A stretch of 64,000 nucleotides of DNA, from positions 17,406 through 81,405 of the forward strand of contig NZ_JATAAF010000012.1 in assembly GCF_030341905.1 (NCBI RefSeq). Direction: 5' to 3'. A model generated the notes under the pieces. That model searched no databases and was not told the origin of the DNA. It worked only from the letters and a program-made list of their open reading frames with translations. The translations under genes and the position numbers were made by a program. This DNA comes from Porticoccus sp. W117 (GTDB lineage: Bacteria > Pseudomonadota > Gammaproteobacteria > Pseudomonadales > Porticoccaceae). Shown piece after piece: positions 47,942 to 63,669 of the stretch (within the stretch, counting starts at the first letter, position 1; each line of letters opens with the position of its first letter).

Positions 47942-49081
47942 ATGCAGGACGCTTATATCACCGGAGTTGGCCGCTTCTTACCTGGCCCGACTATCAGCAA
48001 TAAAGAAGTAGAAGATTATATTGGCTGTATTCATGGTCAGCCCTCTGCTTTCAGAGCAGCCACTCTTCGCAAAAACGGCATCAAGACTCGCCACTACGCT
48101 GTCGATATTGAAGGTAATCACCTTTATACCAATGCTCAAATGGCTGCCGAAGCGATACGTGCAGCAGCGGCGAACGCCAAGCACGATGTAGCCTCTTTGC
48201 AACTACTGGCTACCAGTACAACTCAGGGTGATTTATTGGTGCCTGGGTTTGCCAGTGCTGTGCATGGTGAATTGGGCATACCGCCGCTAGAGCTAGCATC
48301 CTTCCAAAGTGTATGCGCTAGTAGCATGATGGCTATTAAAAACGCTTACCTGAATATCAGGTCTGGCGATAAACAAACAGCCGCTGCTTGTGGCAGTGAG
48401 TTTTCAAGCCGCTGGTTTCGCCCTGGCTTTTATGAATCTTGTGTTGCAGAGGAAGAGGCTCGCAAGCCGCCCATCGATCTGGATTTCTTGCGCTGGACAT
48501 TGTCCGATGGTGCTGGTGCTTTATTTATAGAGCCCAACCCCAAATCGGATGGAGTGTCCTTACGCTGTGACTGGATTGACCTTCAATCGTTTGCTGATCG
48601 CTTCGATCCTTGTATGTACGCTGGCTCCAGTAGCAATGTGCCAGGGGAAAATTTACCTTGGAGCCATTATGCCTCACCGCAGGAAGCTTACCAAGCAGGC
48701 GCGATGGCACTGAGACAGGATTTTGAATTGCTCTATAAAATGTTCCCGGTGTGGCTTGGGTACTACCTGAGTCTGATGGACAAACACGGCTTTAATCCAG
48801 AAAGCATTGACTATTACTTACCTCATTACTCGGCCAAATCCTTGGGCGAAGAGATGAAAAAACTGATGAAGAGCGCTGGGGCTATGATTCCGGAGGAGCG
48901 TTGGTTTAATAATCTAACCACTGTAGGTAATACCGGCTCGGCTTCGATTTTTTTGATGTTGGAAGAACTCTTGCGCGAACAAGATCTACAGCCGGGTCAG
49001 ACTATTCTTTGTTTCGTGCCAGAAAGCGGCCGTTGTATAGCCTCATTTATGCACCTCACTGTTGTCACCAACAAGGACTAA
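47942..49081 (+). CDS. 3-oxoacyl-ACP synthase III (FabH)-like condensing enzyme / acyltransferase
   Basis: N-terminal ITGVGRFLPGPTISNKE, candidate Cys-His-Asn triad (QSVCASSMMA, HYSAK, VGNTGSASI). AT-richer than upstream genes. Confidence 0.75.
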   Translation: MQDAYITGVGRFLPGPTISNKEVEDYIGCIHGQPSAFRAATLRKNGIKTRHYAVDIEGNHLYTNAQMAAEAIRAAAANAKHDVASLQLLATSTTQGDLLVPGFASAVHGELGIPPLELASFQSVCASSMMAIKNAYLNIRSGDKQTAAACGSEFSSRWFRPGFYESCVAEEEARKPPIDLDFLRWTLSDGAGALFIEPNPKSDGVSLRCDWIDLQSFADRFDPCMYAGSSSNVPGENLPWSHYASPQEAYQAGAMALRQDFELLYKMFPVWLGYYLSLMDKHGFNPESIDYYLPHYSAKSLGEEMKKLMKSAGAMIPEERWFNNLTTVGNTGSASIFLMLEELLREQDLQPGQTILCFVPESGRCIASFMHLTVVTNKD

Positions 49082-49087
49082 CCAGAT

Positions 49088-49774
49088 ATGGAAATGAAAT
49101 CCTCTAAAACAGCGGCACAAGCTGTAATGCGTCAACTCATAATCACATGGACCGATTTTGAAAGTCGCCTCCTGAAAGTGCCTATTATCGAGCGCATTAT
49201 GCGCGATCAATTACAGCTGGAAGATTATCGCCAAATCCTGCTAAACCATCGTCAGCAGGTTATAGAAGGCAGTCGTTGGATCGCCCGAGCCTCCTCTTCT
49301 ATTGATAATCGCTACCCGGAACTACGCTCTACTTTTATTCGTCATGCCAATACTGAGCATCGCGATTATCAGATGTTGGACGCAAATTACTTGTCAGTAG
49401 GTGGCGACGTAGAGACGTTGGCCAACAGTGAAAAGAATATAGGTAGTGAAGCCTTGTCTGCGTGGATGTTTCACCAAGCCAGTCAGCCCAATCCATTCGA
49501 CCTGTTAGGCGCAATGTTCATTATCGAGGGATTGGGAAAACAGTTTGCCCGCACCTTCGCTCAGAAAATTCAGAAACAATTGAGACTGAGCGATGATCAA
49601 GTGAGTTTCTACCTATACCATGCTGATCACGACGAAGAGCATATTGGTGAACTGGAAGATGCGCTGCAAAGCGGTATTCTCAGCGATGATGGCTTAGCCG
49701 GCCGCATTGCCAAGACCGCGCGGGTAACCGCCAGGCTTTATCTGTTGCAGTTGGAAGAACTGGGGAACTACTGA
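49088..49774 (+). CDS. heme-oxygenase-like fold protein, probable diiron oxidase (CADD/PqqC/TenA superfamily)
   Basis: 228 aa. Candidate metal ligands E...H (ANTEHRDYQ), E (IIEGLGKQF) and H-x3-D-x2-H (YHADHDEEH) spaced as in CADD-type enzymes. AAGGA RBS 6 nt after the KAS-III stop. Confidence 0.6.
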   Translation: MEMKSSKTAAQAVMRQLIITWTDFESRLLKVPIIERIMRDQLQLEDYRQILLNHRQQVIEGSRWIARASSSIDNRYPELRSTFIRHANTEHRDYQMLDANYLSVGGDVETLANSEKNIGSEALSAWMFHQASQPNPFDLLGAMFIIEGLGKQFARTFAQKIQKQLRLSDDQVSFYLYHADHDEEHIGELEDALQSGILSDDGLAGRIAKTARVTARLYLLQLEELGNY

Positions 49775-50634
49775 TGAGTTGGTCTGACGATTTCGACAAT
49801 CAAACCATCAATACAAAAGACCCTAATCCTTGGCTGGCACTCTATCTGGATGGCAGTTTGCCTATGCACGATCCTGCCAAGCAGGCGCTGCTGCGTGGTC
49901 ACAATACTTGGACCCGACGACTGCTTCTGCCCATTGTTCGTCCGCTTGCGCGGCTAAATATTATTTTGGTGCAACTTCTTCGAGTCATTTTGCCCGAGCG
50001 TTGTAGTTCTTCGCGGATATTGCACAAAACCATCTATTGGGGATTGAAAACTTTCGTCCGAAACGATGCCAATTACCTAATTTTGAGGCACTTCCATATC
50101 GGCACGGAGATACTGGGTTTTATTGCTGATAACGCCAAGGTCACCATCGAGAGTACCGAACCCCTGCGTCCCAATAATTTGGAAGGTTTAATCGAGGATA
50201 CCTTCCTGATTCACGATCTGAATATATTCAACTTTATTTTGGAGTTAAATCACAAGCTGAAGGAAGAGGGGCGGGATCTGACAGCTCCCGAACACCTTAA
50301 TTTGGGTTCTATTACCGATGGCGAGTTTGATATTGAGTTACCTAAAGAGAAGGCATTCAATGTGTTGGACTTACAGACAGCTATTGAAATGTATACGCCT
50401 TTGTACGCGCTGTTTCTATCCGATCGAGACTTCTGGCGTGCTAGTAATTCTTTACAGCTGGATGAAACGATTGCCATTTACATCGGTAAAATACTGAATG
50501 ATGCCATACCATTGGGTTTGGTGAATAATCGGCATCCGTCAGTACCTGTGTCGACTTTACAGGCGGGATTTCGGTTGATGCTGCATGGCTTGGATGCAGA
50601 GATTCTGCATGGATACCTGAGGAGTTTGAAATAA
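49774..50634 (+). CDS. hypothetical protein (286 aa), translationally coupled to the upstream gene (TGATG overlap)
   Basis: Stop/start overlap with the diiron-oxidase gene. No motif I recognise. Confidence 0.55.
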   Translation: MSWSDDFDNQTINTKDPNPWLALYLDGSLPMHDPAKQALLRGHNTWTRRLLLPIVRPLARLNIILVQLLRVILPERCSSSRILHKTIYWGLKTFVRNDANYLILRHFHIGTEILGFIADNAKVTIESTEPLRPNNLEGLIEDTFLIHDLNIFNFILELNHKLKEEGRDLTAPEHLNLGSITDGEFDIELPKEKAFNVLDLQTAIEMYTPLYALFLSDRDFWRASNSLQLDETIAIYIGKILNDAIPLGLVNNRHPSVPVSTLQAGFRLMLHGLDAEILHGYLRSLK

Positions 50635-50685
50635 CTGCTTATGTCTCAGCGGGTGAGTTATCAAATCTACCCCCACAGGTATCTA

Positions 50686-51312
50686 CTAGTCTCCCCCACA
50701 GCTACCACATGAGCTGCTGCAACCTCCACCACAGCGACCGTCTTTACCACCACCTTTACCACCGAAGCTGGCAAACAAAAATCGCAGAGCCAAAAAGCCC
50801 ACGACACACCAAAACCCTATTTCTAACCAACTGGTGCTTTGATCCCCACTTTCTGCAAAGGCAGTCGCTACGGTTCCTGCTAACGCTGCGGGTACAAACC
50901 ACTTCAGTATGTGACTCTTATTATTTGGCTTTGAATTCCATACTAATTGTGGCGGCTCTTTGCCAAATTCGGCTCGATAAAGGGCAAGGGTTTTCTCGAA
51001 TTGCATTTGCATCTGAGTATCTGAGGGAGTGTGATGCAGCTCGGCTCCAAGTATTTCTGAGCAAAACCGACCCCAGTAGGATTTAGTGAATGTCAGGTGT
51101 AAATGCCATACAAGATCAATCGCAGGGGAGGGTGAAACCATACCTTGCTGCAAGGTGGCCAGATAGCAAAATCGCTTGTATTCATCTACTACCTCTAGAC
51201 AGTGATTATGCTTCCAGCCAGTTTCTTGCTTTAGCTTGGTGATAAATAAATCATATTGCCGATCAGCAATTTTGTGATTACGAAGCCGATTCCATAGTTC
51301 TTGATTTGTCAT
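50686..51312 (-). CDS. DUF1399-like domain membrane protein with C-terminal Gly/Cys-rich tail
   Basis: 208 aa. N-terminal ~140-aa domain with IDLVWHLHLTFTKSYWGRFC (reminiscent of the plant/bacterial glycine-rich-domain protein family). One TM helix (WLEIGFWCVVGFLALRFLFASF). Tail GGKGGGKDGRCGGGCSSSCGSCGGD. ATGA start/stop overlap with the upstream NTase gene. Confidence 0.6.
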   Translation of the reverse strand: MTNQELWNRLRNHKIADRQYDLFITKLKQETGWKHNHCLEVVDEYKRFCYLATLQQGMVSPSPAIDLVWHLHLTFTKSYWGRFCSEILGAELHHTPSDTQMQMQFEKTLALYRAEFGKEPPQLVWNSKPNNKSHILKWFVPAALAGTVATAFAESGDQSTSWLEIGFWCVVGFLALRFLFASFGGKGGGKDGRCGGGCSSSCGSCGGD

Positions 51313-52106
51313 GCTACCCCCAATACTGAATGAAACAACTCGTTCAAATCTGACATATCAGGCCTAAGCATTGCCTTATCCAAATCAAGGTTGCTCAAAC
51401 GCTCAATCTCCGATTCCACATAATCATTGAGCGCCTTGATGGCGGGTACAAGCTCTTTTTCGGTGCTGGCTTGTTTGCGTTTCAAAAGAGCAGTTATCTC
51501 CCGATCAAGTTCTGATCCGTCAGGCACTAGCTTGCGCAGCCGATCAAATTCGATGGGCGGAGGTTCGCGGTACTCTTCTAACCAGCGGACAGAGAGCAGG
51601 GGGCGCAGCACATAGAAGTACTTTTTCAGGGGTACGATTTCTGCTTGCAAGTAACCACGGTAGTTGGTTTTGGCCATACTGCGATAATGATAGATGCCTT
51701 TTTCAACAGAGTATCCCCGGCTAAGCAAACTTCTGGCTTGTTCAGCAAAGTGGCCATCATCTACGTACACAATAGGTGATTGGAGCCACTCCACAAACGA
51801 GGGGTTAGACTTGCTGAAAAGCCTCAGTGCTTTGCGAACATCCCAGCCATTGATGTCTATTTCGTCGACTATCTCGTATTCGATCACATCCCGTTTATCT
51901 TCCAGATCTACAGCCACATACCAATCTTTTGGGTGCGCGTAGATAAAGCGAACATCAAAGTCGCTGTTTTGTGAGGCGAACCCCCAGGCTCTGCTGCCGG
52001 ATTCCACAGCGTACAGAATTTTGACGCTGTGTTCTTTTTCGGCGGCGCGTATTCGTCGCAGGATTTCTGCTCGGGTTTCTTTAGGTATCACATGTTCCAT
52101 CATCAT
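51309..52106 (-). CDS. Pol-beta-superfamily nucleotidyltransferase (RlaP/PF10127-like)
   Basis: GS-x9-DxD NTase motif in ILYAVESGSRAWGFASQNSDFDVRFIY. 265 aa. Confidence 0.7.
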   Translation of the reverse strand: MMMEHVIPKETRAEILRRIRAAEKEHSVKILYAVESGSRAWGFASQNSDFDVRFIYAHPKDWYVAVDLEDKRDVIEYEIVDEIDINGWDVRKALRLFSKSNPSFVEWLQSPIVYVDDGHFAEQARSLLSRGYSVEKGIYHYRSMAKTNYRGYLQAEIVPLKKYFYVLRPLLSVRWLEEYREPPPIEFDRLRKLVPDGSELDREITALLKRKQASTEKELVPAIKALNDYVESEIERLSNLDLDKAMLRPDMSDLNELFHSVLGVA

Positions 52107-52163
52107 GATGTCACCTATCAGTGAAAGCCATCTATTCGCCGCAATAGCAAATAGATGGCGGGT

Positions 52164-53312
52164 TTAGCTGTTGGGAGACAACTTGACCATATCATTCAGC
52201 ACGCTATCGAGACCACCGTAAACGGAGATCTTGTCGATGCGGCCGGTGACACGCTCCAGTGCTTCCAGTTCTTTCAAACGCAGCAGCATTGGGTTGTTTT
52301 CCATCAGCTTGGCGGTGTTATGCAGGGAGCGCATCGCCTGAGTCTCCTCGCGACGCTTGATCAGGTTGGCTTCAGACTCTTTTTGAGCCTCTACAACCTG
52401 ATTCAGAATTTCCTTCATATCACCGGGCAAGATAATGTCTTTTACACCAACGCTTGCCAGTTCAATTCCGTACTCGGTCAGCTTGCTGCGAATACCGTCT
52501 GCAATGGCGACGTTCAAGCTGTCTTTGTCTTCCAGCAAGTTATCCAGCGTCTGGGTTCCTACCGCTTCGCGAAGGTGCAGTTGCAGCTCGCGATAGACAA
52601 AGTTGGCGAAGTCGTTCAGCTTGAGTGCAACGATCTTGGGGTCGATCACCCGGTAGCTACCGCTTAGGTTTACCCGCAAGCTGACACGGTCTTTGGTCAG
52701 GATTTCCTGGCCGCTGACTTCGATCGCTTGCAAGCGCAAATCCAGCAGTTTGACGGCTACTGAGCGGTTGTACCTCCAGTAACCGTAGCTTCCTGGCTGC
52801 AGCAGCTCCTGAAACTTGCCATTAACGGTCAGAAGACCCACGTGCTCGTCGGGTACCTCCACATAGTTGATGGCGTTGGAGGCGTTGCGGCTTTTGCCAA
52901 TGGCCAAACCGCGGCCCAGCAACTTCAGCAGTTTGCTATCAATGGCAAACTTTTCGCTGATATCGATCACATCAATACGCACGTCTTCGATTCCCTTCCA
53001 TACGGCAAGGAAGGTGCCTGGTGCAAGAATATCCACCAGGTGACCATCGCGGTAGAACAGGCCTACCTGCATATCGGTCAGCTCAAAGCGGTCAATAAAA
53101 CCATTCAGCTTTTCGGCCTGAGTATTGAGCAGGAACTTGGCTTTGGCGTGGTCAAAAACAATGTTAGTGGCATCGTATTTTTCCAGGCGAGTTTTGCCAG
53201 CCAATGCGTTAATGCGATGGCGGCCGGGCTCAAGTACTCGGTCCAGCCGGTTGCGCCGGTACAGTAATGCCCGCTCGTTATCGGCGATATCTACAGTATT
53301 CCATAACATCAT
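52164..53312 (-). CDS. SPFH/band-7 (stomatin/prohibitin/flotillin-like) domain protein
   Basis: 382 aa. SPFH-like core (ILTKDRVSLRVNLSGSYRVIDPKIVALKLND) and a coiled-coil C-terminal region. No NfeD partner gene adjacent. Confidence 0.7.
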   Translation of the reverse strand: MMLWNTVDIADNERALLYRRNRLDRVLEPGRHRINALAGKTRLEKYDATNIVFDHAKAKFLLNTQAEKLNGFIDRFELTDMQVGLFYRDGHLVDILAPGTFLAVWKGIEDVRIDVIDISEKFAIDSKLLKLLGRGLAIGKSRNASNAINYVEVPDEHVGLLTVNGKFQELLQPGSYGYWRYNRSVAVKLLDLRLQAIEVSGQEILTKDRVSLRVNLSGSYRVIDPKIVALKLNDFANFVYRELQLHLREAVGTQTLDNLLEDKDSLNVAIADGIRSKLTEYGIELASVGVKDIILPGDMKEILNQVVEAQKESEANLIKRREETQAMRSLHNTAKLMENNPMLLRLKELEALERVTGRIDKISVYGGLDSVLNDMVKLSPNS

Positions 53313-53640
53313 TTTTCTCTCCTTTCTCTTGTTGTTCTTTAGGTTACAAATAAAGCGAGGCTCACCCGAAAACCCTGGGGCTGACAGCTTGATCTGCAGT
53401 GGGTGGCGGGTCAGTGGTTTGCGAATATCTGGTTCATTGCGCCTTTGTGTTAACTACTGCGCGCGTAAAACCCGTATTCAGCAAACTTGACCAGACACCG
53501 TCTACAAACTCCCCTGATAGCGGCAGTGAGATCGGCGTTCCAGTTTGTCAATTCTCTCGTTTGATCCAAAATTCGAATCAAACGATTGATGTCAAACATT
53601 CCAGAACCATGAGCCTCTGGTAGATTTATTTAGCAAGGAC

Positions 53641-53690
53641 CTGAACCTTGTGGGGACTCGAACCCCGGGCCTCTCGGCCTTACCTTTTTG
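53641..53690 (-). other. tRNA 3'-fragment-like element (variable-arm-like hairpin GGCCGAGAGGCC + T-arm-like GGGGTTCGAGTCCCC) immediately 3' of tRNA-Met
   Basis: Minus-strand reading. There is no 5' half. Possible att remnant or degenerate tRNA. Confidence 0.35.
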
Positions 53691-53706
53691 TCGTGTTTCA
53701 GACGAC

Positions 53707-53782
53707 TGGTACTTTGGCAGGATTCGAACCTGCGCCCGATCGATTATGAGTCGATTGCTCTACCCAACTGAGCTACAAAGTC
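53707..53782 (-). tRNA. tRNA with CAU anticodon (Met elongator or Ile2-lysidine type)
   Basis: Cloverleaf with D-arm GCTCAGTTGGGTAGAGC, anticodon loop CTCATAA, T-arm GCAGGTTCGAATCCTGC. By my reading the 1:72 pair is G:A and CCA is not cleanly encoded. Confidence 0.65.
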
Positions 53783-53912
53783 GGTGTTTAGGCCGGTTAT
53801 CAAATTGGTACACAACACATGAAGCATGCTTGTGCCAGGCCGATAATCAGAATCGGCTCCGCTAATTTGAATAACAGTTCCCAAACCTTGTTGTGACAGA
53901 CCGCTTATTGCA

Positions 53913-54476
53913 TTAAGCAGCCTGCCAGCATCTTTGCCCGGTAAACCGAGCTTGCAGGTACTCCATTTGATCGCCGCGAATGCGACGGTTTGCCAAGTAC
54001 ATAAACTCAAATACATTTGGCTCAAAGGGAATAGCCAGCAATTCCATACCTGCCTGCTCCGGTGTGCGGCCACCTTTGTGGCTATTGCAACGGGCGCAGG
54101 CGGCAACCACGTTTACCCAGACATCCGGGCCTCCTTGCACACGGGGCACAATGTGATCTCGGGTCAGTACCCGATCATCAAACTGCTGTCCGCAGTACAT
54201 ACAGCGGTGGCCGTCGCGGCGAAACAGCAGGCGATTGCTCAATGCCGGTATAAAGGCTCTTTTCCCTATGTCACCCTCGCAGGCAATAATGGGGGCAAGC
54301 AGCAAAGACGAGCGCTCACCATGGCTATTGATGCCACCGTTAATACGGTAGTGGTCTTCGCCCAGGCTCCACAGCACTTGCTCTTTCACATACAGAACCA
54401 CAGCCTCTTCAGGGGTAACCCATGATTGAGGCAGACCTGTTTTGTTCAGCCTTAGAATGCTGTTTTGCATTGCCAT
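53913..54476 (-). CDS. HNH endonuclease
   Basis: HNH motif HRCMYCGQQF...TRDHIVPRVQGG...AACARCNSHKG. Start MAMQNS at 54476 with a GGAGAAGGAGA RBS. Embedded in the tRNA array. Confidence 0.8.
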   Translation of the reverse strand: MAMQNSILRLNKTGLPQSWVTPEEAVVLYVKEQVLWSLGEDHYRINGGINSHGERSSLLLAPIIACEGDIGKRAFIPALSNRLLFRRDGHRCMYCGQQFDDRVLTRDHIVPRVQGGPDVWVNVVAACARCNSHKGGRTPEQAGMELLAIPFEPNVFEFMYLANRRIRGDQMEYLQARFTGQRCWQAA

Positions 54477-54518
54477 TTTTCTCTCCTTCTCCAATATCGT
54501 GCTCGGCATTGAGCACTA

Positions 54519-54600
54519 ACACCCGATGCAGGAATCGAACCTGCCACCTTCAGCGCCGCTGACCAAAGTTCCACTCCTGTAGAGCTTTTTAATCAGCTGG
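54519..54600 (-). other. degenerate tRNA-like region (good T-arm GCAGGTTCGATTCCTGC but no complete cloverleaf)
   Basis: Several short hairpins and T-arm-like motifs on both strands. Possible pseudo-tRNA. Confidence 0.3.
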
Positions 54601-54614
54601 ACTGGTCGAGTCCG

Positions 54615-54689
54615 TGGTTGGGGCAGTGGGAGTCGAACCCACCTATGCCGGCTTAAAAGGCCGGTGCACAACCGCTATGCCATACCCCA
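54615..54689 (-). tRNA. tRNA with UUU anticodon (nominally Lys) on a Gln-like body
   Basis: TGGGGTATGGCATAGCGG...CACCGG-CCTTTTAAG-CCGGCAT...GGTTCGACTCC...TGCCCCA-A-CCA. Body matches tRNA-Gln conventions (U1:A72, G2-G4), but loop CUUUUAA and discriminator A73 are Lys-type. Confidence 0.6.
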
Positions 54690-54704
54690 AAAAATCATTA
54701 ACAT

Positions 54705-54778
54705 TGGCTGCGGTGCCTGGAATCGAACCAGGGATATCGGAGTCAAAGTCCGATGCGTTACCATTACGCTACACCGCA
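54705..54778 (-). tRNA. tRNA-Gln (UUG)
   Basis: TGCGGTGTAGCGTAATGGTAACGCATCGGACTTTGACTCCGA...CCTGGTTCGATTCCAGG. U1:A72, anticodon loop CUUUGAC. Confidence 0.8.
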
Positions 54779-54793
54779 TATTTCCTGTGCATT

Positions 54794-54867
54794 TGGGGTG
54801 GCGCCGGGGATCGAACCCTGGTCTCCTGGTTCACAGCCAGGCACTCTGCCACTGAGCTAACACCACC
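54794..54867 (-). tRNA. tRNA-His (GUG) with extra 5' G
   Basis: GGTGGTGTTAGCTCAGTGGCAGAGTGCCTGGCTGTGAACCAGG...GGTTCGATCCCCGGCGCCACCCCA. Confidence 0.85.
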
Positions 54868-54889
54868 GTAGCAACACTTATTTCTAAAT

Positions 54890-55037
54890 TGGTGCCCCAT
54901 CTTGGAGTGACTCGAGCCATCCATGGCTCTCGGGCTGCGCCCGCCTGCGGCGCCCAAATTTGCTCTCCTGCAAATTTGTCGAACCAAGAACCTCCAGAAT
55001 CTAAATCTGGCGCCTCTTCCAATTGGGCCAATGGGGC
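54890..55037 (-). ncRNA. aberrant 148-nt tRNA-like gene: tRNA-type acceptor (GCCCCAT...ATGGGGC-A-CCA), D-arm and anticodon arm (loop TTTAGAT, anticodon UAG) but about 90 nt of extra hairpins where the T-arm should be
   Basis: Read from the minus strand. The termini pair perfectly and end in ACCA. The interior has three hairpins (AAATTTGC/GCAAATTT, a GC-rich stem, GAGCC/GGCTC) instead of a canonical T-arm. Confidence 0.4.
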
Positions 55038-55052
55038 AAATAATTAATTATT

Positions 55053-55127
55053 TGGCTGGCCTGGCAGGACTCGAACCTGCGATATTCCGGTTAACAGCCG
55101 GACGCTTTACCACTCAGCTACAGGCCA
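55053..55127 (-). tRNA. tRNA-Asn (GUU)
   Basis: TGGCCTGTAGCTGAGTGGTAAAGCGTCCGGCTGTTAACCGGA...GCAGGTTCGAGTCCTGCCAGGCCAGCCA. Confidence 0.85.
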
Positions 55128-55140
55128 ACAGCTTTTAAAA

Positions 55141-55183
55141 ACACTAAAAAATAAAACCCCGACTGGGGCTGCCAGACGGGGTT
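55141..55183 (-). terminator. intrinsic terminator (minus-strand sense) insulating the tRNA array from rtcBA readthrough
   Basis: aaccccg...cggggtt hairpin. On the minus strand it is followed by TTTTATTTTTTAGTGTTTTT. Confidence 0.6.
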
Positions 55184-55798
55184 TCGAAATTGCTTTCTAC
55201 TGATCCGAATGGCGTAGCCATTCGGAACTTCCGAAGACTACTTCATTGTTGTTTCTCCTGACCTTCTGCCATTGAGTGAGCCAGAAAATTACGTTGTTTA
55301 TGAGAGAAGAGGGGGCTTACATAGTTTTTGGGCGCATCTTCCCTCTGCCCACTTATCTGCGGGCACAGTTCATTAAAATTCGAAAGTTGTTCTGTCCAAT
55401 TACTCAGCAAGCTATTCTCCTCACTGTTCTCATCATTTTCTTTCGGGTACTAAAAAGCCCGGATCAGTTACCTCGTAAAGAGGTGGCCTGCCGGGCTTTA
55501 CAATAAAATATCATTTCATTGTAAACCTGAAAGGCCAGTTAGCCTTCCAGGTTGAAAGCTAACTAATACGCTACGTTCAGGTGTTCACGATCTAACCCAG
55601 CACACATTGGCTGGCTATTTTTAAATTGCACTATATTTTGGTCGCAACTATCCTGGCACAGTATCGAGCTGTGCTTGGGAAGTGTGTTGTAGATAAAGTC
55701 TATCTTCATTGCGACGATTAAAAATTCAAAAAATATAATTTGGTTGGCAATAATAATCTTCAAAAATATTATGTCAATCAATTTCCGAATTTTAAAAA

Positions 55799-56815
55799 CT
55801 ATTTATCGACAAAAACTTCCCAGTAATCTTTTTTCAGCTCTTTAAGCGAGATGTTTACTCCTGTCATTTGTTTAATCACATCAATATTTGTCAGCAAGTG
55901 CTGACTTGGTTGTAGAGTACGAAAGCATCCTCCATTACCTAATGCCATAGGCAATACCAGTTGATCGGCCAAGTGCTCACCCACTGGTACATCTGCTTCC
56001 AGATAACGCTTCATATCCTTCATCGCTCGCCCGGCAACTCGCTCTGCACTGACATGCCGTTCGCCAACAGATTCAAACACTTCCGTAACTGCTTCTGATG
56101 CAACTTGCAACGATAGTAAGTTGCCAGGGCCTGCGGAGTTAACCAGTTTTTGCGTCAACTCTGATTCGCTCCAGTAGCATTTCTTTTGCACTTGAGCCAA
56201 CTCGCGTTCTGTCACATGCTCTGGCACGCGCGCAGATATGGCGACAGCTTTTCGCTTAATAATTTCGCCTCGCTTGACCAAATCCAGAGACTTGACTCCC
56301 TTGGTTGGTTGTATTCGGGCTTTCCAAAATCCGCCGCCTGCCGGGTAAAAACCGTATCGCTCTAGTTCCACCTCAACATGGCAACCCATTTTATTTATGA
56401 TTGGTAAAAAGCACCGTTCAATAAACTCGAAGCTCGGTGCCATACCGTTATGGGTTCCACCCTCCAGAGTTAATTCGCTAATATCATCAGCAAGAAGCAG
56501 GGGTAGTAGCACCGTCTGGAATACCAACGTCGTACTGCCCGCCGAGCCAATCGCAAAATGGTAGCTGCCTGATTTAACCTTTCCGGGTTCAAACGTCACC
56601 CTGGATGATCCCATTGCATCACCACTGACCTGAGCATTGCAAATGCCCTGAGCAGCCCGCAAGCAGGTTAAATGCTGGCGCAATAATCCCGGCTTGTTTC
56701 TGCCTGCCCGAATATTCTCAATGCAGACCGACTTGCCAAGGCACATGGCCAGGGTCAACGAGGTTCTGAATATTTGCCCTCCACCTTCGCCTTGAGAGCC
56801 GTCGATAGTGATCAT
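55799..56815 (-). CDS. rtcA: RNA 3'-terminal phosphate cyclase
   Basis: MITIDGSQGEGGGQIFRTSLTLAMCLGKSVCIENIRAGRNKPGLLRQHLT aligns with E. coli RtcA. 338 aa. Confidence 0.93.
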   Translation of the reverse strand: MITIDGSQGEGGGQIFRTSLTLAMCLGKSVCIENIRAGRNKPGLLRQHLTCLRAAQGICNAQVSGDAMGSSRVTFEPGKVKSGSYHFAIGSAGSTTLVFQTVLLPLLLADDISELTLEGGTHNGMAPSFEFIERCFLPIINKMGCHVEVELERYGFYPAGGGFWKARIQPTKGVKSLDLVKRGEIIKRKAVAISARVPEHVTERELAQVQKKCYWSESELTQKLVNSAGPGNLLSLQVASEAVTEVFESVGERHVSAERVAGRAMKDMKRYLEADVPVGEHLADQLVLPMALGNGGCFRTLQPSQHLLTNIDVIKQMTGVNISLKELKKDYWEVFVDK

Positions 56816-56910
56816 TCTTCTTTCTCTTTAGCTTGTTTATTCACAACTAGCCGCAAGCGTCCGTCAAAAACGGTCGCCATCCCCTGGCGTAAAAACATCC
56901 CTGTAAACCG

Positions 56911-58137
56911 TTAACCTTTCACGCAGACGACTTGCTTCAGCGTGTAAACCACTTCTACCAAGTCCTTTTGCGCTGCCATCACTTTTTCGATGGGCTTGTA
57001 CGCAGAAGGGGTCTCATCGATTACACCTTGGTCCTTACGGCATTCCACATCCGCTGTGGCCAAGCAATGCTCTTCCAGTGAAACCAGTTTCTTGGCTTGT
57101 GTACGAGACATCACTCGTCCGGCGCCGTGGCTGCAGCTGCAAAAGCTCTCTTCGTTACCCAGGCCGCGAACTATGAAAGACTTTGCTCCCATGCTGCCGG
57201 GAATAATGCCCATCTCACCTTCGCGGGCTCGTACCGCGCCTTTGCGAGTGACCAATACGTTTTTGCCGTAGTGGTTTTCGCGGGAGACGTAGTTATGGTG
57301 GCAGTTCACTGCTTCCATACGCGCCTCAAAGTTGATTTTCATGGTATCGCGCACGGCTTTAATGACTCGGGCCATCATTACCTCGCGGTTCAGCCGGGCA
57401 AATTCCTGCGCCCATTCCACCGCTTCCACATACTGATCAAAGTGCTCAGTGCCTTCCGGCAGGTAAGCCAGATCAGAATCCGGCAGATGGATATGCCAGC
57501 GTTCCATGTCTTTTTTAGCCATCTCGATAAAGTGCGTACCAATACGGTTACCCACTCCGCGAGAGCCGCTATGGAGCATTAACCAAACTGCATCGTGCTC
57601 GTCCAGACACATCTCAATAAAGTGATTGCCGGTACCCAACGTACCCAGGTGGTTCAGGTTATTGGTGTTTTTCAGCACACGGTGCTTTTCTTGCAGCACA
57701 TCGAACTGGCCTGCCAGTTGTGCCCAGGCAGTCATTACGTCGTCCGGCGCATTAGTCCAGGCACCTTTATCCCGGTTGCCTCGGGCGCGAGCAGAACGAC
57801 CGTGAGGTACAGCTTTCTCAATCGCTGAGCGAATACCCGCCAGGTTATCCGGCAGCTGGGAAGCGGTAAGGCTGGTGCGAACCGCCATCATTCCGCAACC
57901 AATATCCACACCCACTGCAGCGGGGATTACTGCGCCCAATGTGGGCACTACGCTACCGATAGTCGCGCCTTTACCCAGGTGCACATCGGGCATGGCCGCT
58001 ACCCACCTATGAATAAAGGGCATACGGGAAATGTTTTTCAGCTGATCTTTGGCCTTATCTTCAAAAGGTACGCCCACAGTCCAGGACTTGATAGGTACGC
58101 CACCATCCTGCATCACTTCGTAAGTTTGTTCATTCAT
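56911..58137 (-). CDS. rtcB: RNA-splicing ligase RtcB
   Basis: 408 aa, near-full-length identity to E. coli RtcB (MPDVHLGKGATIGSV, GTGNHFIE, C-terminal HGAGRVMSRT...VVCVKG). Confidence 0.95.
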   Translation of the reverse strand: MNEQTYEVMQDGGVPIKSWTVGVPFEDKAKDQLKNISRMPFIHRWVAAMPDVHLGKGATIGSVVPTLGAVIPAAVGVDIGCGMMAVRTSLTASQLPDNLAGIRSAIEKAVPHGRSARARGNRDKGAWTNAPDDVMTAWAQLAGQFDVLQEKHRVLKNTNNLNHLGTLGTGNHFIEMCLDEHDAVWLMLHSGSRGVGNRIGTHFIEMAKKDMERWHIHLPDSDLAYLPEGTEHFDQYVEAVEWAQEFARLNREVMMARVIKAVRDTMKINFEARMEAVNCHHNYVSRENHYGKNVLVTRKGAVRAREGEMGIIPGSMGAKSFIVRGLGNEESFCSCSHGAGRVMSRTQAKKLVSLEEHCLATADVECRKDQGVIDETPSAYKPIEKVMAAQKDLVEVVYTLKQVVCVKG

Positions 58138-58185
58138 TTTTCAATTCCTGTAAATAGCTGTTCTCGTTTTTCTTGTTATGGGTAT

Positions 58186-58202
58186 AGCAAGGCGGGGGCC
58201 AA
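58186..58202 (-). promoter_or_regulatory. sigma-54 promoter of rtcBA (TTGGCCCCCGCCTTGCT = TGGC-N7-TTGC)
   Basis: GG and GC elements at the exact consensus spacing. About 45 bp upstream of the rtcB start. Divergent from rtcR. Confidence 0.75.
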
Positions 58203-58346
58203 CTTTTGTAGTGAGGTGAAAATATTTCTTAAGTTGCTGAAAATAAAAGAATAAATATTTTTATTATGCTGAGGCTAGTGATTGCAGCAAAAAATTAAGT
58301 TAAATTTAACTATCAAAATAGATATAAAAATAATATATTCGATATT

Positions 58347-59942
58347 ATGAGAACAGTAGCGATCAGTATTCTTGGGACTATCCTGGACCGGCGCGGCAAG
58401 AGAGAAAAGCGCTGGGACAAGTGGCGTCCCACCGTTTCCATGTGCCAACACGAAGATATGGTTATCGACCGGCTGGAGTTGTTATTTGATAACCACTCAA
58501 AACGCCTCGCTGAGCAAGTTACCGAAGATGTGGCCAGGGTATCGCCGGAAACTGAGGTGGTTCATCACCTGGTTAACTTTAATGACCCCTGGGATTTTGA
58601 GACGGTTTACAGCACTTTGCTGGATTTCACTCGTGGCTATGATTTTCAGACCAGTGAAGAGCAGTACCTCACGCATATCACCACCGGTACGCACGTGGCA
58701 CAGATATGCCTGTATCTGCTGACTGAAGCTGGCTATCTGCCAGGAAAGCTGTTGCAAACATCGCCTGCTAAGCGTGGCAGCAATGCACCAGGGCAATATC
58801 AAATTATTGACCTGGACCTGTCGAAGTACGACCAAATAGCCTCGCGCTTTCAGAAAGAGCACCAAGAGGGCACCAGTTACTTGAAAGGTGGCATAGAGAC
58901 CAATAATACCGCCTTTAATAAAATGATTGCCCAGCTTGAGCAAGTGTCTATCCGTTCCAGTGAGCCTATATTGATTACCGGGCCAACGGGTGCCGGCAAG
59001 TCATGGCTTGCGCAGCGGGTTTATGATCTTCGTAAGCAGCGGGGTAAATTATTTGGTCCTTTGGTGGCCGTGAACTGCGCCACGTTACGTGGTGAAAATG
59101 CCATGTCAGCATTGTTTGGCCATAAGAAAGGCGCATTTACCGGTGCTACAGCGGACCGTCCTGGTTTGTTGATGGAGGCCAATAATGGATTGCTGTTTCT
59201 GGATGAGATCGGAGAGCTCGGGCTGGATGAGCAAGCTATGTTGCTCAGGGCTGTCGAAGACAGGCGCTTTATGCCGTTTGGCTCCGATAAAGAGGTCAGT
59301 AGCGACTTTCAGCTGATTGCGGGTACCAATAAAGATCTTATCCAACAGTGCCAGAAAGGGGCGTTTCGGGAAGATCTTCTTGCCCGCATTGACCTCTGGA
59401 CCTATCGACTGCCATCTCTGAACGAGCGAAAAGAGGATATAGAACCCAACCTGGAATACGAGTTGGAAAAATTCTCCACGAAATCGGGTTATCTGGTTAA
59501 GTTCAACAAAGCGGCCCGAGATAGATACCTATCATTTAGTCATTCTGCCGAAGCAGTTTGGTCGGCCAATTTTCGAGACCTCAACGCCAGTATTACCCGT
59601 ATGGGAACATTGGCTGATGGTGGTCGAGTTACTGTCGATCTGGTGGATGAGGAAATCATGCGCCTCAAGCGCAAGTGGCAGGTGGGAGCTCAAGATAGAG
59701 AAGGGCATGTTGAGATGATTGATAGCGTCTTGGGTGCTGGGTATGCCGCTACTATGGATTATTATGAGCAAATTCAGCTGGCAGCTCTTATCGAGGTGTG
59801 TAGATCATCCAGGTCAATGGCGGATGCTGGCAGAAAGCTCTTTAATGTAAGTAGGGCGGCTAAAAAATCTAGTAATGACTCCCACCGGGTCAAACAGCTG
59901 CTGGGAAAATACGATTTGGAGTTTGCTAACCTTGAATTGTAA
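58347..59942 (+). CDS. rtcR: sigma-54-dependent transcriptional regulator RtcR (CARF-like N-terminal domain + AAA+ + HTH)
   Basis: Colinear with E. coli RtcR: N-terminal VAISILGTILD...RWDKWRPTV...HITTGTHVAQIC, then GPTGAGKS and GAFTGA. Confidence 0.93.
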   Translation: MRTVAISILGTILDRRGKREKRWDKWRPTVSMCQHEDMVIDRLELLFDNHSKRLAEQVTEDVARVSPETEVVHHLVNFNDPWDFETVYSTLLDFTRGYDFQTSEEQYLTHITTGTHVAQICLYLLTEAGYLPGKLLQTSPAKRGSNAPGQYQIIDLDLSKYDQIASRFQKEHQEGTSYLKGGIETNNTAFNKMIAQLEQVSIRSSEPILITGPTGAGKSWLAQRVYDLRKQRGKLFGPLVAVNCATLRGENAMSALFGHKKGAFTGATADRPGLLMEANNGLLFLDEIGELGLDEQAMLLRAVEDRRFMPFGSDKEVSSDFQLIAGTNKDLIQQCQKGAFREDLLARIDLWTYRLPSLNERKEDIEPNLEYELEKFSTKSGYLVKFNKAARDRYLSFSHSAEAVWSANFRDLNASITRMGTLADGGRVTVDLVDEEIMRLKRKWQVGAQDREGHVEMIDSVLGAGYAATMDYYEQIQLAALIEVCRSSRSMADAGRKLFNVSRAAKKSSNDSHRVKQLLGKYDLEFANLEL

Positions 59943-60083
59943 TTCTGATTTTAAATCGCCTCTTCAACTTTGAGTGATGTTAAGAGTGCTGCTTTTATCG
60001 GTAGAAGGGGATAGATTAGGCAGCATGGCGGGGAAGTGGTTTATACTCCCAGCCTTTATAAGGATATTTGGACTTCCTGCCTC

Positions 60084-61427
60084 ATGAACCATACCTGTTG
60101 TCCTCGCTTTACTCTCACTCGATTTCTTGCGCTGACGTTACTGTCTTTATGTGTGTTGCAAGCAAACACGGCGGCTCAGGAGCCTGAGCCTGCTGATACG
60201 GTTTATTACCAAACTATTCTGTACCTGATCAAAGAGCCTGCTAACCTGGGCAAGTTGATGCAGCACGAAGTTCCTGGGTTTACCAAGGCGGAAGAGTGGC
60301 CTGATAAGGTCACTAGCCCCATATACCGGTTGGAACAGTTTAGAGACCTGAAAAATCAACTGCCGCCGCCAGATATGCAAACACTGTCCTATTTTGGCCG
60401 AGGCTTGTCCCGCCAGGAGGCAGAAGAGCTGCAGCAGGCTGAGCTGGCCATTGTGTTGACCGCAGCCTATCCCATTGAACAAAACATCAAGCACCTGAAG
60501 GCACTAAACAACTTCAGCCATCGACTGGCTACAGAGAACGGCGGTTACCTGTGGGACTCAGAAACTCGTGAGCTTTTCACTCCTGATGTCTGGAAGGTTC
60601 AACGATTGGACGCTTGGCACGGTGACATTCCACTTGCTCACCAACATACCGTGATACACGCTTATCAAGACACAGACTACGTGCGGGCTATCACCTTGGG
60701 CATGGCGAAGTTTGGGTTGCCTGATATCGTGGTGAACAAGTTTTCTTGGTCTTCTAATCGCTCAATGGGCAATCTGATTAATATCGTCGCTCAGTCTCTG
60801 GCCGAAGGAGTTGTGCCCGAAGCAGATGGCCGGCTGACACTCAACATCGATCAATTGGCTGATACGCCTTTTAAGAAAGAAATGCTGGAAAGCTTACTCG
60901 ACAATGCTGAACGTCAAGTTACCCTGAGTATTGCATCAGGCAAATGGGAAGAAGGCGATCCACAGAACATCCTGTTGGAGCTGACTTTCCACGATATAGA
61001 GGGAAGAGACCTGCACGCCAAACAGGAAGCTTTATTATCGCGCTTGTTTGGCTGGGAAGACTCCATCGTCTACGTAGAACAAAACAAACAGATAGAGGCC
61101 GCCAGCAATAGGGCCAAAGAAAAACTGTCTTTATTGAAAGAAGCTTTCAATAAAGGCCTTAACCCCGGCGAGTACATTCTACTAAAAGCTCCTTTCGAGA
61201 CTCCAGATGGTGGTACTGAATGGATGTGGGTGGAGGTAATCACCTGGCGCGATGACAGCATTAAGGGGCTTCTGAAAAACGAACCCTTCAAAATACCCGA
61301 CCTCCATGGCGGTGCTGAGGTCACAGTGAGCCAGAAAGACATTTTTGACTATATCTGGAACCGTGCTGATGGCAGCCGGGAAGGTAACGAGACAGGTGAA
61401 TTGATACAGAAATACCAAAATCAGTAA
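60084..61427 (+). CDS. secreted hypothetical protein (signal peptide; C-terminal region of unknown function)
   Basis: Signal peptide RFTLTRFLALTLLSLCVLQA after MNHTCCP. The ORF-track start 60036 would be a GTG with no RBS. Confidence 0.55.
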   Translation: MNHTCCPRFTLTRFLALTLLSLCVLQANTAAQEPEPADTVYYQTILYLIKEPANLGKLMQHEVPGFTKAEEWPDKVTSPIYRLEQFRDLKNQLPPPDMQTLSYFGRGLSRQEAEELQQAELAIVLTAAYPIEQNIKHLKALNNFSHRLATENGGYLWDSETRELFTPDVWKVQRLDAWHGDIPLAHQHTVIHAYQDTDYVRAITLGMAKFGLPDIVVNKFSWSSNRSMGNLINIVAQSLAEGVVPEADGRLTLNIDQLADTPFKKEMLESLLDNAERQVTLSIASGKWEEGDPQNILLELTFHDIEGRDLHAKQEALLSRLFGWEDSIVYVEQNKQIEAASNRAKEKLSLLKEAFNKGLNPGEYILLKAPFETPDGGTEWMWVEVITWRDDSIKGLLKNEPFKIPDLHGGAEVTVSQKDIFDYIWNRADGSREGNETGELIQKYQNQ

Positions 61428-61486
61428 TGAGTCGCAGGAGCGTGCTCTAGTAAATAGGCATTAAATCAATTTGAAGTGGTGGATAA

Positions 61487-62122
61487 ATGCAAATGAAATT
61501 TAGTGTATTGGCTTTAGCAGGATTATTGCTCTTTGGTTTTGGGTATGACTTTTCGGAGGAAGACCAAATTTTACTGGCGTCTAATAATATTGAGGCCAAT
61601 GCTCTTGGCTCGATATCAGCGATTAAAGGGGTAGAACAGCTTCATACCTATGACGATGATTACAATCAAGTAAAAGCAAAGGGGGTTTTGCTGAAAGTGA
61701 AGCCAAATTCAGGCTGGAATGTAGTTAAGACTCTTAGGAAAAACCTCTCTGATAGTCCTTATCAGGCCTATTTTTACGATAACAACTTTGGCTATGGTGA
61801 TGATGAAGTCGCAGTTGTGCCCACTAAAGACTCTATTCAGTACCTGAAGACAGTTAAAACCAACGGCTTGAACTACGACCTCACAGCGGATGATGTACTC
61901 AAAAAATATATCGAGTGGAATGATAGGTTTGATCTCAGGCTGCTAGGAGCTGGCATGGATTGGCTTCAGGCGGATGTAACGAAAGATGGTATTGATTGGC
62001 GGCAGTTCGCAAAAGAGGTGTATGAATTCTGCCCAGATGTGGTGGATCAAGGGACTGGCACTGTTGAAGCCCTTGAGTCTGAAATGAGGAAATCAAAAAC
62101 ACTGTATTTATGGTGGGATTGA
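61487..62122 (+). CDS. secreted hypothetical protein (211 aa)
   Basis: Signal peptide MQMKFSVLALAGLLLFGFG. AT-rich. Ends ...LYLWWD. Confidence 0.5.
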   Translation: MQMKFSVLALAGLLLFGFGYDFSEEDQILLASNNIEANALGSISAIKGVEQLHTYDDDYNQVKAKGVLLKVKPNSGWNVVKTLRKNLSDSPYQAYFYDNNFGYGDDEVAVVPTKDSIQYLKTVKTNGLNYDLTADDVLKKYIEWNDRFDLRLLGAGMDWLQADVTKDGIDWRQFAKEVYEFCPDVVDQGTGTVEALESEMRKSKTLYLWWD

Positions 62123-62178
62123 TGGAAGTCAGAGCTCGGAGACTGAATCTTGCTCCCTATTTATCAAAGGAGAAAGTA

Positions 62179-63652: not shown

Positions 63653-63669
63653 TTTTTCAAGAGGATGTG

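Follow-up and report, generated by a model that had tools for sequence, protein, structure and literature searches.

The interrupted tRNA-Leu gene

The stretch of DNA analysed here (the window) comprises 64,000 nucleotides (nt) of Porticoccus sp. W117 (contig NZ_JATAAF010000012.1, positions 17,406 to 81,405), and its minus strand holds an array of tRNA genes lying downstream of the genes rtcB and rtcA. One gene of this array, 148 nt in length and referred to here as X, was found to be a tRNA-Leu(UAG) gene of the class-I type in which 71 nt of additional sequence split the T-loop exactly between nt 58 and 59. Coordinates of X, its parts and the surrounding features are collected in Table 1. RNA positions are counted from the 5' end of X, and designations such as L001, L205 and L221 are labels of the loci and contigs that were compared, with coordinates given within the locus concerned.

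Read on the minus strand, X has the order GCCCCAT TG GCCC AATTGGAAG AGGC G CCAGA TTTAGAT TCTGG AGGTT CTTGG TTCGA (71 nt) CT CCAAG ATGGGGC A CCA. A preliminary description of this locus had recognised a 148-nt tRNA-like gene on the minus strand, with perfect acceptor pairing of GCCCCAT and ATGGGGC ahead of A-CCA, a D-arm and a UAG anticodon arm (CCAGA-TTTAGAT-TCTGG), and this outline was confirmed. The gene was found to be real on the basis of its tRNA features and its folding, which was better than that of shuffled sequences (z = -3.6, with one of 200 shuffles as good), all seven acceptor pairs are present, and the D-arm and anticodon arm were borne out by the sequence and by alignment to the Rfam tRNA model. 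The D-stem consists of 3 base pairs (bp) plus a C·A mismatch, while the anticodon arm has a 5-bp stem and a 7-nt loop in which U33 is present.

The T-arm had been described differently, as replaced by three hairpins within some 90 nt that lacked a GTTCRA T-loop. The folding of this region into hairpins was upheld, but GGTTCGA was identified at RNA positions 53-59, and a perfect 5-bp T-stem, CTTGG (50-54) with CCAAG (133-137), closes over TTCGA, the 71 nt and CT. As both the GGTTCGA and the 5-bp stem are present, the T-arm is split by an insertion into its loop and is not replaced, so that an interrupted tRNA-Leu(UAG), or a tRNA carrying an insertion, is what remains of the candidates first put forward. 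An ordinary 85-nt class-II tRNA with a normal T-arm, named at the same time as the case that would overturn the description, is not what was found, because the variable loop (AGGUU) is only 5 nt long; the long arm of bacterial class-II tRNA-Leu is absent and the T-loop is interrupted. The intact tRNA-Leu(UAG) of the related L004 array is likewise short-armed.

A contiguous 7-nt T-loop (TΨCRANN) exists in X only after deletion of the insert in silico. In a deletion scan in which 66-75 nt were removed at all offsets and each product was given to ARAGORN, tRNA-Leu(tag) was called when approximately 68-73 nt, starting inside the T-loop, had been deleted. Removal of 71 nt leaves a 77-nt class-I-type tRNA-Leu(UAG) whose T-loop, TTCGACT, is identical to that of the uninterrupted tRNA-Leu(UAG) of L004.

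Intact X received no call from ARAGORN and none from Rfam at the gathering score. The Infernal/Rfam scan, suggested in the preliminary description, gave 15.7 bits with the tRNA model RF00005 (threshold 29), the first 59 nt being aligned before the alignment fails, and no other family was matched on X at E<=10, be it a ribozyme, intron, tmRNA, permuted tmRNA, Y RNA, 6S or 4.5S RNA; the motifs of tmRNA, 4.5S and 6S RNA had likewise been noted as lacking beforehand. Standard tRNA finders thus overlook insert-bearing tRNA genes such as X. The array had no Megablast match in the phage, plasmid or E. coli collections, and a distant search among phages gave a match limited to the 5' half of the tRNA, to the tRNA-Leu of Erwinia phage FBB1.

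Table 1. Positions of X, its parts and associated features (window coordinates unless a locus label is given)
Feature	Position	Strand	Details and basis
Whole gene X, tRNA-Leu(UAG), class-I type, 71-nt T-loop insert, encoded CCA	54890..55037	-	Sequence; ARAGORN after deletion; fold z
Acceptor stem, 5' strand GCCCCAT	55031..55037	-	7/7 Watson-Crick pairs with ATGGGGC (54894-54900); A73 54893; CCA 54890-54892
D-arm GCC(C) AAUUGGAAG (A)GGC	55012..55028	-	A14 and G18G19 present; Rfam tRNA model alignment
Anticodon arm CCAGA-UUUAGAU-UCUGG	54994..55010	-	Anticodon UAG 55001-55003; Rfam tRNA model alignment, ARAGORN
T-stem 5' strand CTTGG and T-loop nt 54-58 TTCGA	54979..54988	-	CTTGG 54984-54988; TTCGA 54979-54983; sequence
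71-nt RtT-like insert CAAATTTGCAGGAGAGCAAATTTGGGCGCCGCAGGCGGGCGCAGCCCGAGAGCCATGGATGGCTCGAGTCA	54908..54978	-	Extracted sequence; termini pattern, structural descriptor, pairwise z
Hairpin H1, 9 bp, CAAAUUUGC / GCAAAUUUG, loop AGGAGA	54955..54978	-	Begins at insert nt 1; fold, family covariation
Hairpin H2, GCGCC / GGCGC, loop GCAGGCG	54937..54953	-	Fold, family covariation
CCCGAGAGCC, counterpart of the family motif (G)CCCGA	54925..54934	-	Motif comparison
Hairpin H4, GAGCCA / UGGCUC, loop UGGA, and tail GAGUCA closing the insert	54908..54929	-	Fold
T-loop nt 59-60 (CT) and T-stem 3' strand CCAAG	54901..54907	-	Sequence; TTCGA plus CT equals the T-loop of intact L004 Leu(UAG)
tRNA array containing X	53708..55127	-	Asn(GUU) 55053-55127, X, His 54795-54867, Gln 54705-54778, Lys 54615-54689
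Distal part of the array		-	Decayed Arg remnant ~54510-54614, HNH open reading frame (ORF) 53913-54509, tRNA(CAU) 53708-53782
rtcA, rtcB and divergent rtcR	55799..59942		rtcA 55799-56815 (-), rtcB 56911-58137 (-), rtcR 58347-59942 (+); Pfam RTC 1e-78, RtcB 6e-133, RtcR 2e-84
Array promoter-like site TTGACA-16-TATTAT, leader ORF and intrinsic-terminator-like hairpin	55153..55777	-	48-codon ORF 55563-55709; hairpin ~55153-55181
Leader regions in relatives	L001 4124-4935; L205 3342-4300; L209 1137-1835; L212 89-783		Also L002, L004, L202
tRNA copies 3' of the HNH gene	53708-53782; L001 6715-6790; L205 5703-5778; L209 3305-3378; L210 1030-1104	- (window)	Also L013, L014, L016, L212

Related inserts in other tRNA and tmRNA-like genes

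A genome scan with the HNH protein of the array gave 80 loci, a few of them with tRNA arrays, and a metagenome probe with the array-type tRNA-Asn gave two contigs, one being a near-duplicate of L001. Several genes of these arrays that were overlooked by ARAGORN were found to be tRNAs with inserts. The tRNA-His of L001 is interrupted in its T-loop (…TGGGG CTCGA|CAAAG…GAATA|TT CCCGG) and is intact in L002, L004, L209 and the window, and the tRNA-Thr of L001 is interrupted in the same loop (GACGG GTCGA|AAAAATGC…GATCA|AT CC…) and intact in L205. A mini-tmRNA-like gene of L001 reads ACGGG TTCGA|59 nt|AT CCCGT CACGTCC A CCA, and was identified without interruption in L021 as ACGGG TTCGAAT CCCGT CACGTCC A CCA (TTCGAATCCCGT) and in L205 as CGGG CTCGAAT CCCGT CGTGTCC A CCA (CTCGAATCCCGT). 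It is this pairing of interrupted and intact mini-tmRNA-like genes that fixes the insertion point between nt 58 and 59. An insert in this style, 60 nt long, was found in the anticodon loop (~37/38) of the tRNA-Arg(ACG) of L210, the gene being intact in L212 and L205. Outside the insert, the interrupted His, Thr and Arg genes share 90-97% identity with their intact orthologues, and their tRNA bodies are undecayed.

The inserts have a common layout. A first hairpin, H1, begins at the first inserted base, usually with CAAA or CAAC, and is followed by a short joiner, often GAC or AAC, and a second hairpin, H2. Thereafter come the motif (G)CCCGA, usually forming a CCC-GNA-GGG mini-hairpin, a variable hairpin (H4) flanked by YGA…GAR, and the tail GA(R)U(N)A.

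Other features of these genes were observed. The mini-tmRNA-like gene, of about 225 nt (L021 2375-2597; L205 ~4130-4375; L001 ~2860-3090, where it lies between rtcB and rtcA), has an acceptor stem GGGCGTG/CACGTCC, a T-arm and CCA; it scored 26.6 bits with the Rfam tmRNA model against a gathering score of 47, and received no ARAGORN call when L205 was run in tmRNA mode. A second type of insert, located in the D-loop region and with the common motif AGAGATGTG, was identified in the tRNA-Cys of L001 (5481-5606; CTGCCAGTAGAGATGTGAGGGCAG) and in a Tyr-like gene of L004 with a GUA anticodon loop (5275-5370; CACAGAAGAGATGTG), the tRNA-Cys of L004 being intact. In the tRNA-Thr of L001 (~5803-5830; also in L201) there is a second insert, 28 nt long (TACCCAAGGCGCTACGCGGGGCACGCTG), which follows anticodon-loop position 37 and is not RtT-like. 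Further tRNA-like genes overlooked or barely scored by the detectors lie at L001 5297-5406 and at L021 2679-2784, 3156-3306 and 3832-3968; those of L001 and L021 include Met-like (CAU) genes whose T-arm is aberrant, a Tyr-like gene in which a long AT-rich hairpin takes the place of the T-arm, and one with an insert in the D/anticodon region. Position 33 of tRNAs is almost universally U. The tRNA-Asn of L001 (4933-5007; also in L201) possesses C33, its anticodon loop reading CCGTTAA against CTGTTAA in the window, L002 and L004.

The RtT family and the probable place of X within it

A 17-base pattern taken from the array inserts led to tandem 166-nt units in prophage-type contigs. Those of L221 scored 54-55 bits with the Rfam family RtT (RF00391, gathering score 45), and homologues of these units in E. 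coli bear the annotation 'RtT sRNA, processed from tyrT transcript'. The insert of the L001 tmRNA-like gene gave a weak RtT match of 26.9 bits. The Rfam consensus reads …AAGGUUCGA|H1…H2…CCCGaAGggCGAg…CGAgUaA|UCCuuCcCccaCCACCA, with H2 followed by the motif CCCGAAGGG; the same arrangement was identified in K-12 after tyrV and in the tyrT-tyrV spacer, and after tRNA-Ser in E. coli, Klebsiella and Serratia, with TTCGA preceding the element in every member. By comparison of the sequences, the known family RtT was thus shown to carry the element after TTCGA, as in E. coli rttR or the '178-bp repeat' of tyrT/serX. From the consensus and the K-12 and Ser-type arrangements, the classic RtT unit can be read as a truncated tRNA running from the end of the variable arm through the T-arm and the 3' strand of the acceptor stem to CCA. 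K-12 rttR is annotated as a small RNA of 171 nt containing the unexcised element. The experimental basis of the K-12 rtT RNA is cited in PMC3318445, and its mode of action is not known according to bioRxiv 10.1101/2024.07.17.603846.

Covariation was assessed among 15 distinct members, with the caveat that the alignment was fitted to the structure. In this alignment 93.8% of cells were paired, compared to 75.9% in shuffles, and the covariation score was 0.53 against 0.18, a value reached by none of 500 shuffles; all slid registers scored lower. Three pairs in each of H1 and H2 have changes on both sides, and in Escherichia, Klebsiella, Serratia and the Cellvibrionales relatives RtT units have been maintained with compensatory changes. 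These patterns of substitution indicate that the structure of the element is under selection. The T-loop UUCG:CGAA pairing of the Rfam consensus structure is lost in Ser-type units (CCCGCAGGG), and the CCC-GNA-GGG hairpin reading fits all members except X. Loose DNA patterns applied to viral contigs gave mostly chance matches in coding DNA, the real ones being L221-type arrays, L260 and L323/L332/L362.

Enterobacterial RtT arrays (L221 7440-8200; L317 1-1370; L314 460-1200) were observed at tRNA-Ser integration hot-spots, beside tyrosine integrases or IS3, and the last partial unit of L221 is cut by the next island exactly at GGGGTTCG|, the start point of the RtT element. An integrase attachment-site (att) scar, suggested by the abutting of RtT arrays and integrases and by the L221 junction at TTCG|, was considered as the origin of the element and rejected as sufficient, because additional DNA separates the TTCGA core from the 3' part of the tRNA itself and because the hairpins covary.

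Several features place X with this family. The insert stands directly after the T-loop NTCGA and ahead of N59N60, the T-stem 3' strand, the acceptor 3' strand and CCA, and it has RtT-type termini, starting with CAA… and ending with …CGAGTCA. The termini pattern TTCGACAA-N40-70-CGAGTCA, derived from E. coli Ser-type RtT only, had X as its single match in the window and none in 100 shuffles. As the covariance alignments had set hairpins out of register, a structural descriptor was written by hand from the members other than X (H1, H2, (G)CCCGA, variable hairpin, tail); X was its sole match in the window, 30 shuffled windows gave none, and 6.5 Mb of other DNA gave two false matches (~0.3 per Mb; ~0.04 expected per window). 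Pairwise similarity was modest though consistent, with z = 4.4 between X and the L260 copy and approximately 3 between X and four other members. An 11-nt stretch of H2 (CGCCGCAGGCG) is held in common with the RtT copy of L260, and the X tail CGAGTCA is identical to that of E. coli Ser-type RtT.

Tests of X by profile methods gave weak results. With the Rfam RtT model no match was obtained on 54850-55080 at E<=10, our own covariance model (R1), built from other members, gave X 11.6 bits (E 0.56), which is no better than ordinary T-arms, and nhmmer of X against the family returned nothing significant. The weakness of these searches can be traced in part to MAFFT, which set the hairpins out of register (in a second alignment as well), and to the Rfam model, which includes a 5' piece that whole tRNAs lack. 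It is also real, however, as X reads CCCGAGAGCC with no GGG partner, so that the CCC-GNA-GGG mini-hairpin is absent, and its H1 and H4 are longer than in other members; together these results count against placing X in RtT. The truncated-tRNA context (a 5' piece GGGGAAGGAUGAGAA… with no D- or anticodon arm) and the tandem repetition are absent at X, a single copy in a complete tRNA. Membership of X is hence not demonstrated by profile methods, while by position, termini and architecture it does belong, and the insert of X is probably homologous to RtT on these sequence features.

Predicted folding of X

In the predicted folds of X a competing helix was identified, in which RNA positions 46-54 (GGUUCUUGG, the variable loop and the T-stem 5' strand) pair with positions 105-113 of the insert (CCGAGAGCC). 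By nearest-neighbour folding this 9-bp helix has a probability of ~0.9, with less than 0.01 for the T-stem, and the predicted free energy is -64.9 kcal/mol compared to -57.6 to -60.2 kcal/mol for the cloverleaf, a gap of 5-7 kcal/mol. The host stem is also out-competed in the predicted folds of the interrupted tRNA-His and tRNA-Thr of L001 and the tRNA-Arg of L210, and an additional piece upstream pairs with the 5' strand of the T-stem in L001-His, as it does in classic RtT. In this folding model the presence of CCCGAGAGCC in X in place of CCCGAAGGG matches its unusual T-stem, where CUUGG replaces NGGGG.

The tRNA array and its genomic context

The order rtcR<>rtcB-rtcA-array-HNH-tRNA-Band7 recurs in relatives, the synteny of the rtc genes and the array being kept in L001, L002, L004, L204, L205 and L207. 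With a Pfam E-value of 6.5e-133 for rtcB, the gene for an RtcB-type 3'-P/5'-OH ligase is present. The HNH ORF is listed as 198 amino acids, though its true start probably gives 187. Downstream of the array lie genes for a Band-7/SPFH protein and an RlaP nucleotidyltransferase, and some relatives add a CCA-adding enzyme and two RlaP genes; in L203-L206 and L209 the CCA-adding enzyme (PolyA_pol + HD) and the two RlaP nucleotidyltransferases were observed after Band-7, and L204 also has a gene for a Y1 (IS200/IS605-type) transposase.

The array is preceded by a promoter-like site, a leader ORF and a terminator-like hairpin 22 nt before tRNA-Asn. A near-consensus sigma-70 promoter, an ORF of 31-50 codons and a strong terminator are kept in L001, L002, L004, L205, L209, L212 and L202. 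The ORF of the window encodes MKIDFIYNTLPKHSSILCQD…, and the residues in which the leader peptides are rich, Q, N, H, K, C, P, T and M, correspond to the tRNAs of the arrays. To judge from its sequence, the leader looks like a peptide attenuator that would sense shortage of array tRNAs, and the array, equipped with a promoter, a leader ORF and a terminator of its own, appears to be a unit of 'spare tRNAs' under separate regulation.

Between tRNA-Lys and the HNH ORF, an Arg remnant (54510-54614, minus strand) was observed to keep its 3' part GGCAGGTTCGATTCCTGCATCGGGTG, with a scrambled 5' half and no CCA; as this gene is decayed, the array holds pseudogenes too. The tRNA situated 3' of the HNH gene represents one conserved scaffold on which the anticodon varies (CAT, AAT, ATT, GGT, ACT, AGT, CTT, GTT and one 6-nt loop), and since position 36 is always T these tRNAs all read ANN codons. 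Several copies have no encoded CCA. This tRNA is flanked by conserved non-coding RNAs (53790-53915 and 53640-53707 on the minus strand of the window; also in L205, L209, L210 and L212), one of which ends …GTGTTGTGTACCA, a tRNA-like 3' end, the other having a T-arm-like GGGGTTCGAGTCCCC followed by a hairpin. The G+C content is ~0.55 over window positions 1-48000 and drops to 0.39-0.52 at ~48 kb (48000-64000). The rtc/tRNA-array region may be a horizontally acquired island.

Fate of the insert

The explanation that best accounts for the whole, and in which we have about even confidence, is that X is an interrupted tRNA-Leu(UAG) carrying an insert of the RtT family and is retained as a tRNA-like RNA. 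Retention of the insert in the transcript, which draws on analogy with E. coli, is in itself judged a little short of evenly balanced. The X transcript would keep the element as the 171-nt E. coli rtT RNA does; the element would fold into H1, H2 and H4, with segment CCGAGAGCC pairing to the variable loop and the T-stem 5' strand. The resulting 148-nt tRNA-like RNA would possess an acceptor stem, CCA and an anticodon arm but have its T-arm masked, and would count among RtT-class RNAs instead of serving as a decoder. Its synthesis would accompany induction of the array under translational or tRNA stress, and one possible role is that of a decoy or ligand for tRNA-binding proteins. Nucleotides 59-60 bulge out of the T-loop motif, and this is the site at which the T-loops of other RNAs tolerate insertions; a large domain at the tRNA elbow is probably incompatible with the ribosome. 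Retention is supported by the annotation of K-12 rttR with its element unexcised, this being the sole experimentally characterised member of the family, and no candidate RNA-splicing endonuclease was found among the neighbouring genes scanned.

Certain points weigh against this explanation. Retention is carried over from E. coli rtT, a truncated unit, to a whole tRNA, and the masked T-arm of X is a prediction, the nearest-neighbour folding of tRNAs being unreliable. Intact tRNA bodies are what an intron would predict, and so is the member in the anticodon loop, where a retained insert would abolish decoding. RtcB joins tRNA exons in archaea and animals, and rtcB lies in the next operon upstream of the array.

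A somewhat unlikely alternative to retention as a tRNA-like RNA is that X is the casualty of a selfish, loop-targeting RtT-like element that inactivated a redundant spare tRNA, in which case the hairpins would serve the element as RNA or single-stranded DNA and the host RNA would be functionless. The presence of inserts varies between close relatives and among tRNA hosts, four of the ~10 genes of the L001 array are disrupted, the arrays turn over quickly and contain degenerate tRNAs such as the Arg remnant of the window, the enterobacterial units are tandemly amplified beside integrases and insertion sequence (IS) elements, and host stems are predicted not to form. Set against this, the bodies of the insert-bearing tRNAs are undecayed, the compensatory changes described above accompany the persistence of RtT units across genera, the arrays contain no transposase or integrase linked to the element, and the position of the insert, with the TTCGA core on one side and the tRNA's own 3' part on the other, is not accounted for by a simple att-site scar.

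It is unlikely that the insert is a protein-dependent tRNA intron, cut at A58|C and A|C59 to leave 2',3'-cyclic phosphate and 5'-OH ends that RtcB would join to yield the 77-nt tRNA-Leu(UAG). On this view RtT-like elements would be the bacterial equivalent of the introns that archaea carry at non-canonical tRNA positions, to which the parallels are striking. The intact tRNA body, the exact T-loop regenerated by deletion, the identity of the insert-bearing His, Thr and Arg genes to their intact orthologues and the conserved termini of the element would all be accounted for, as would the occurrence of one family at equivalent loop positions of several tRNAs, including ~37/38 of the anticodon loop, which resembles the transposition of archaeal introns. 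The rtcB and rtcA genes are immediately upstream, in conserved synteny; the insert is predicted to pair with exon sequence, as introns often do; and the array leader ORF has the Leu codons CUU and CUG, which would be sensible if the Leu tRNA decodes. However, no bulge-helix-bulge motif was seen by eye at the junctions in free or constrained folds, which place the 5' junction of X within a multiloop at the H1 base and the 3' junction in or beside a short helix. Among the neighbours scanned there is no EndA-like or other metal-independent RNA endonuclease, the sole nuclease being the HNH protein. HNH nucleases leave 5'-phosphate and 3'-OH ends, which are not joinable by RtcB, and the HNH protein of the array is for this reason unfit as an RtcB partner. 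There is likewise no match to a known self-cleaving ribozyme in Rfam and no hammerhead-like core by eye, E. coli rtT accumulates unspliced at 171 nt, and the arrays also hold plainly decayed tRNA genes. The broader claim, that RtT-like elements are non-self-splicing bacterial introns of tRNA and tmRNA genes, targeting 7-nt hairpin loops (58/59; ~37/38) and ligated by RtcB, is quite improbable; if true, bacterial RtcB would gain a native splicing substrate and the clustering of interrupted genes downstream of rtcBA would be explained.

The remaining candidates of the preliminary description, permutation of the tRNA or a mimic (Y-RNA or tmRNA type) whose T-arm is replaced by three hairpins, are extremely unlikely. 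Permutation and a replaced T-arm were refuted, and a mimic-like role of the unspliced RNA falls under retention as described above. Although ARAGORN and Rfam do not call X, and related Salmonella operons carry tRNA-like YrlA RNAs beside rtcBA, the T-arm is present and collinear (GGTTCGA … CCAAG) and X has no YrlA, Y_RNA, tmRNA or permuted-tmRNA match. A Y RNA had also come into consideration through a likeness of GGCCCGAAGGGUGAG to the 5' end of human Y1, and was dropped, there being no Rfam match and no Ro/TROVE gene among the neighbours scanned.

The element was found nucleotide-exact in the T-loops of complete tRNA-Leu, tRNA-His and tRNA-Thr and of a tmRNA-like gene, as well as in an anticodon loop. 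RtT is thereby recast as a loop-inserting module, and the classic units become truncated tRNAs that carry it. For over 40 years RtT has stood as a puzzle at the tyrT locus of E. coli; it has an Rfam entry and annotations in thousands of genomes, but no known mechanism. The interrupted genes adjoin rtcBA, whose natural substrates in bacteria are debated, and this raises the question of whether protein-spliced tRNA introns exist in bacteria or whether 'expanded' tRNA-like RNAs are made under tRNA stress. In a literature search of incomplete coverage, no paper was found on RtT-like elements inside complete tRNA or tmRNA-like genes or anticodon loops, on such elements outside enterobacteria or linked to rtcBA, or reading RtT units as T-loop insertions.

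Comparison with known systems

Group I introns occur in the anticodon loops of bacterial tRNAs and in the T-loop of a clostridial tmRNA gene. As in X, a tRNA or tmRNA gene is interrupted within a loop and its exons are left intact, but the insert of X is far too small; a group I intron was rejected for X, as 71 nt cannot hold a P1-P9 core (at least ~200 nt) and there was no Rfam intron match. Archaeal tRNA introns occur at non-canonical positions, for example 58/59 or 59/60, and transpose among tRNAs, a subject reviewed in PMC4090602. They resemble the family of X in being short structured inserts in tRNA loops, including the T-loop and 37/38, in the presence of related inserts in different tRNAs with varying occurrence among relatives, and in having RtcB at hand. 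X differs in belonging to a bacterium and in that no bulge-helix-bulge motif was seen at its junctions and no EndA-type endonuclease was found among the neighbours scanned.

YrlA is a tRNA-like Y RNA of the Salmonella rsr-yrlBA-rtcBA operon (PMC4201824). Like X, it is a modular RNA in which a tRNA-like body is joined to an extra structured module, and it is encoded beside rtcBA. In YrlA, however, the module stands in place of the anticodon stem, where the termini of the RNA also lie. X has no YrlA match, and no Ro gene was found among the neighbours scanned.

The translational-stress regulon of TrcR in Anabaena comprises a tRNA array, rtcB, an HNH endonuclease and slipin (PMC10272220). This gene set (slipin corresponding to Band-7) is the same as that of the window, and in Anabaena it is induced under translational stress. 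The Anabaena genes are scattered and under the control of a repressor, whereas those of the window are adjacent, with RtcR/sigma-54 for rtcBA and with the array having its own promoter, leader and terminator. RtT-like inserts are not described in the Anabaena trn operon.

In the insert itself X resembles RtT, with which it shares the site of the element, its termini, the order of H1 and H2, the (G)CCCGA motif and the variable hairpin flanked by YGA…GAR. Classic RtT is distinguished by its truncated tRNA, the 5' piece GGGGAAGGAUGAGAA…, tandem repeats and a rho/terminator context, whereas X, scoring below the Rfam threshold, has its element as a single copy in a complete tRNA that belongs to an array linked to rtcBA, in a marine bacterium of the Cellvibrionales type.

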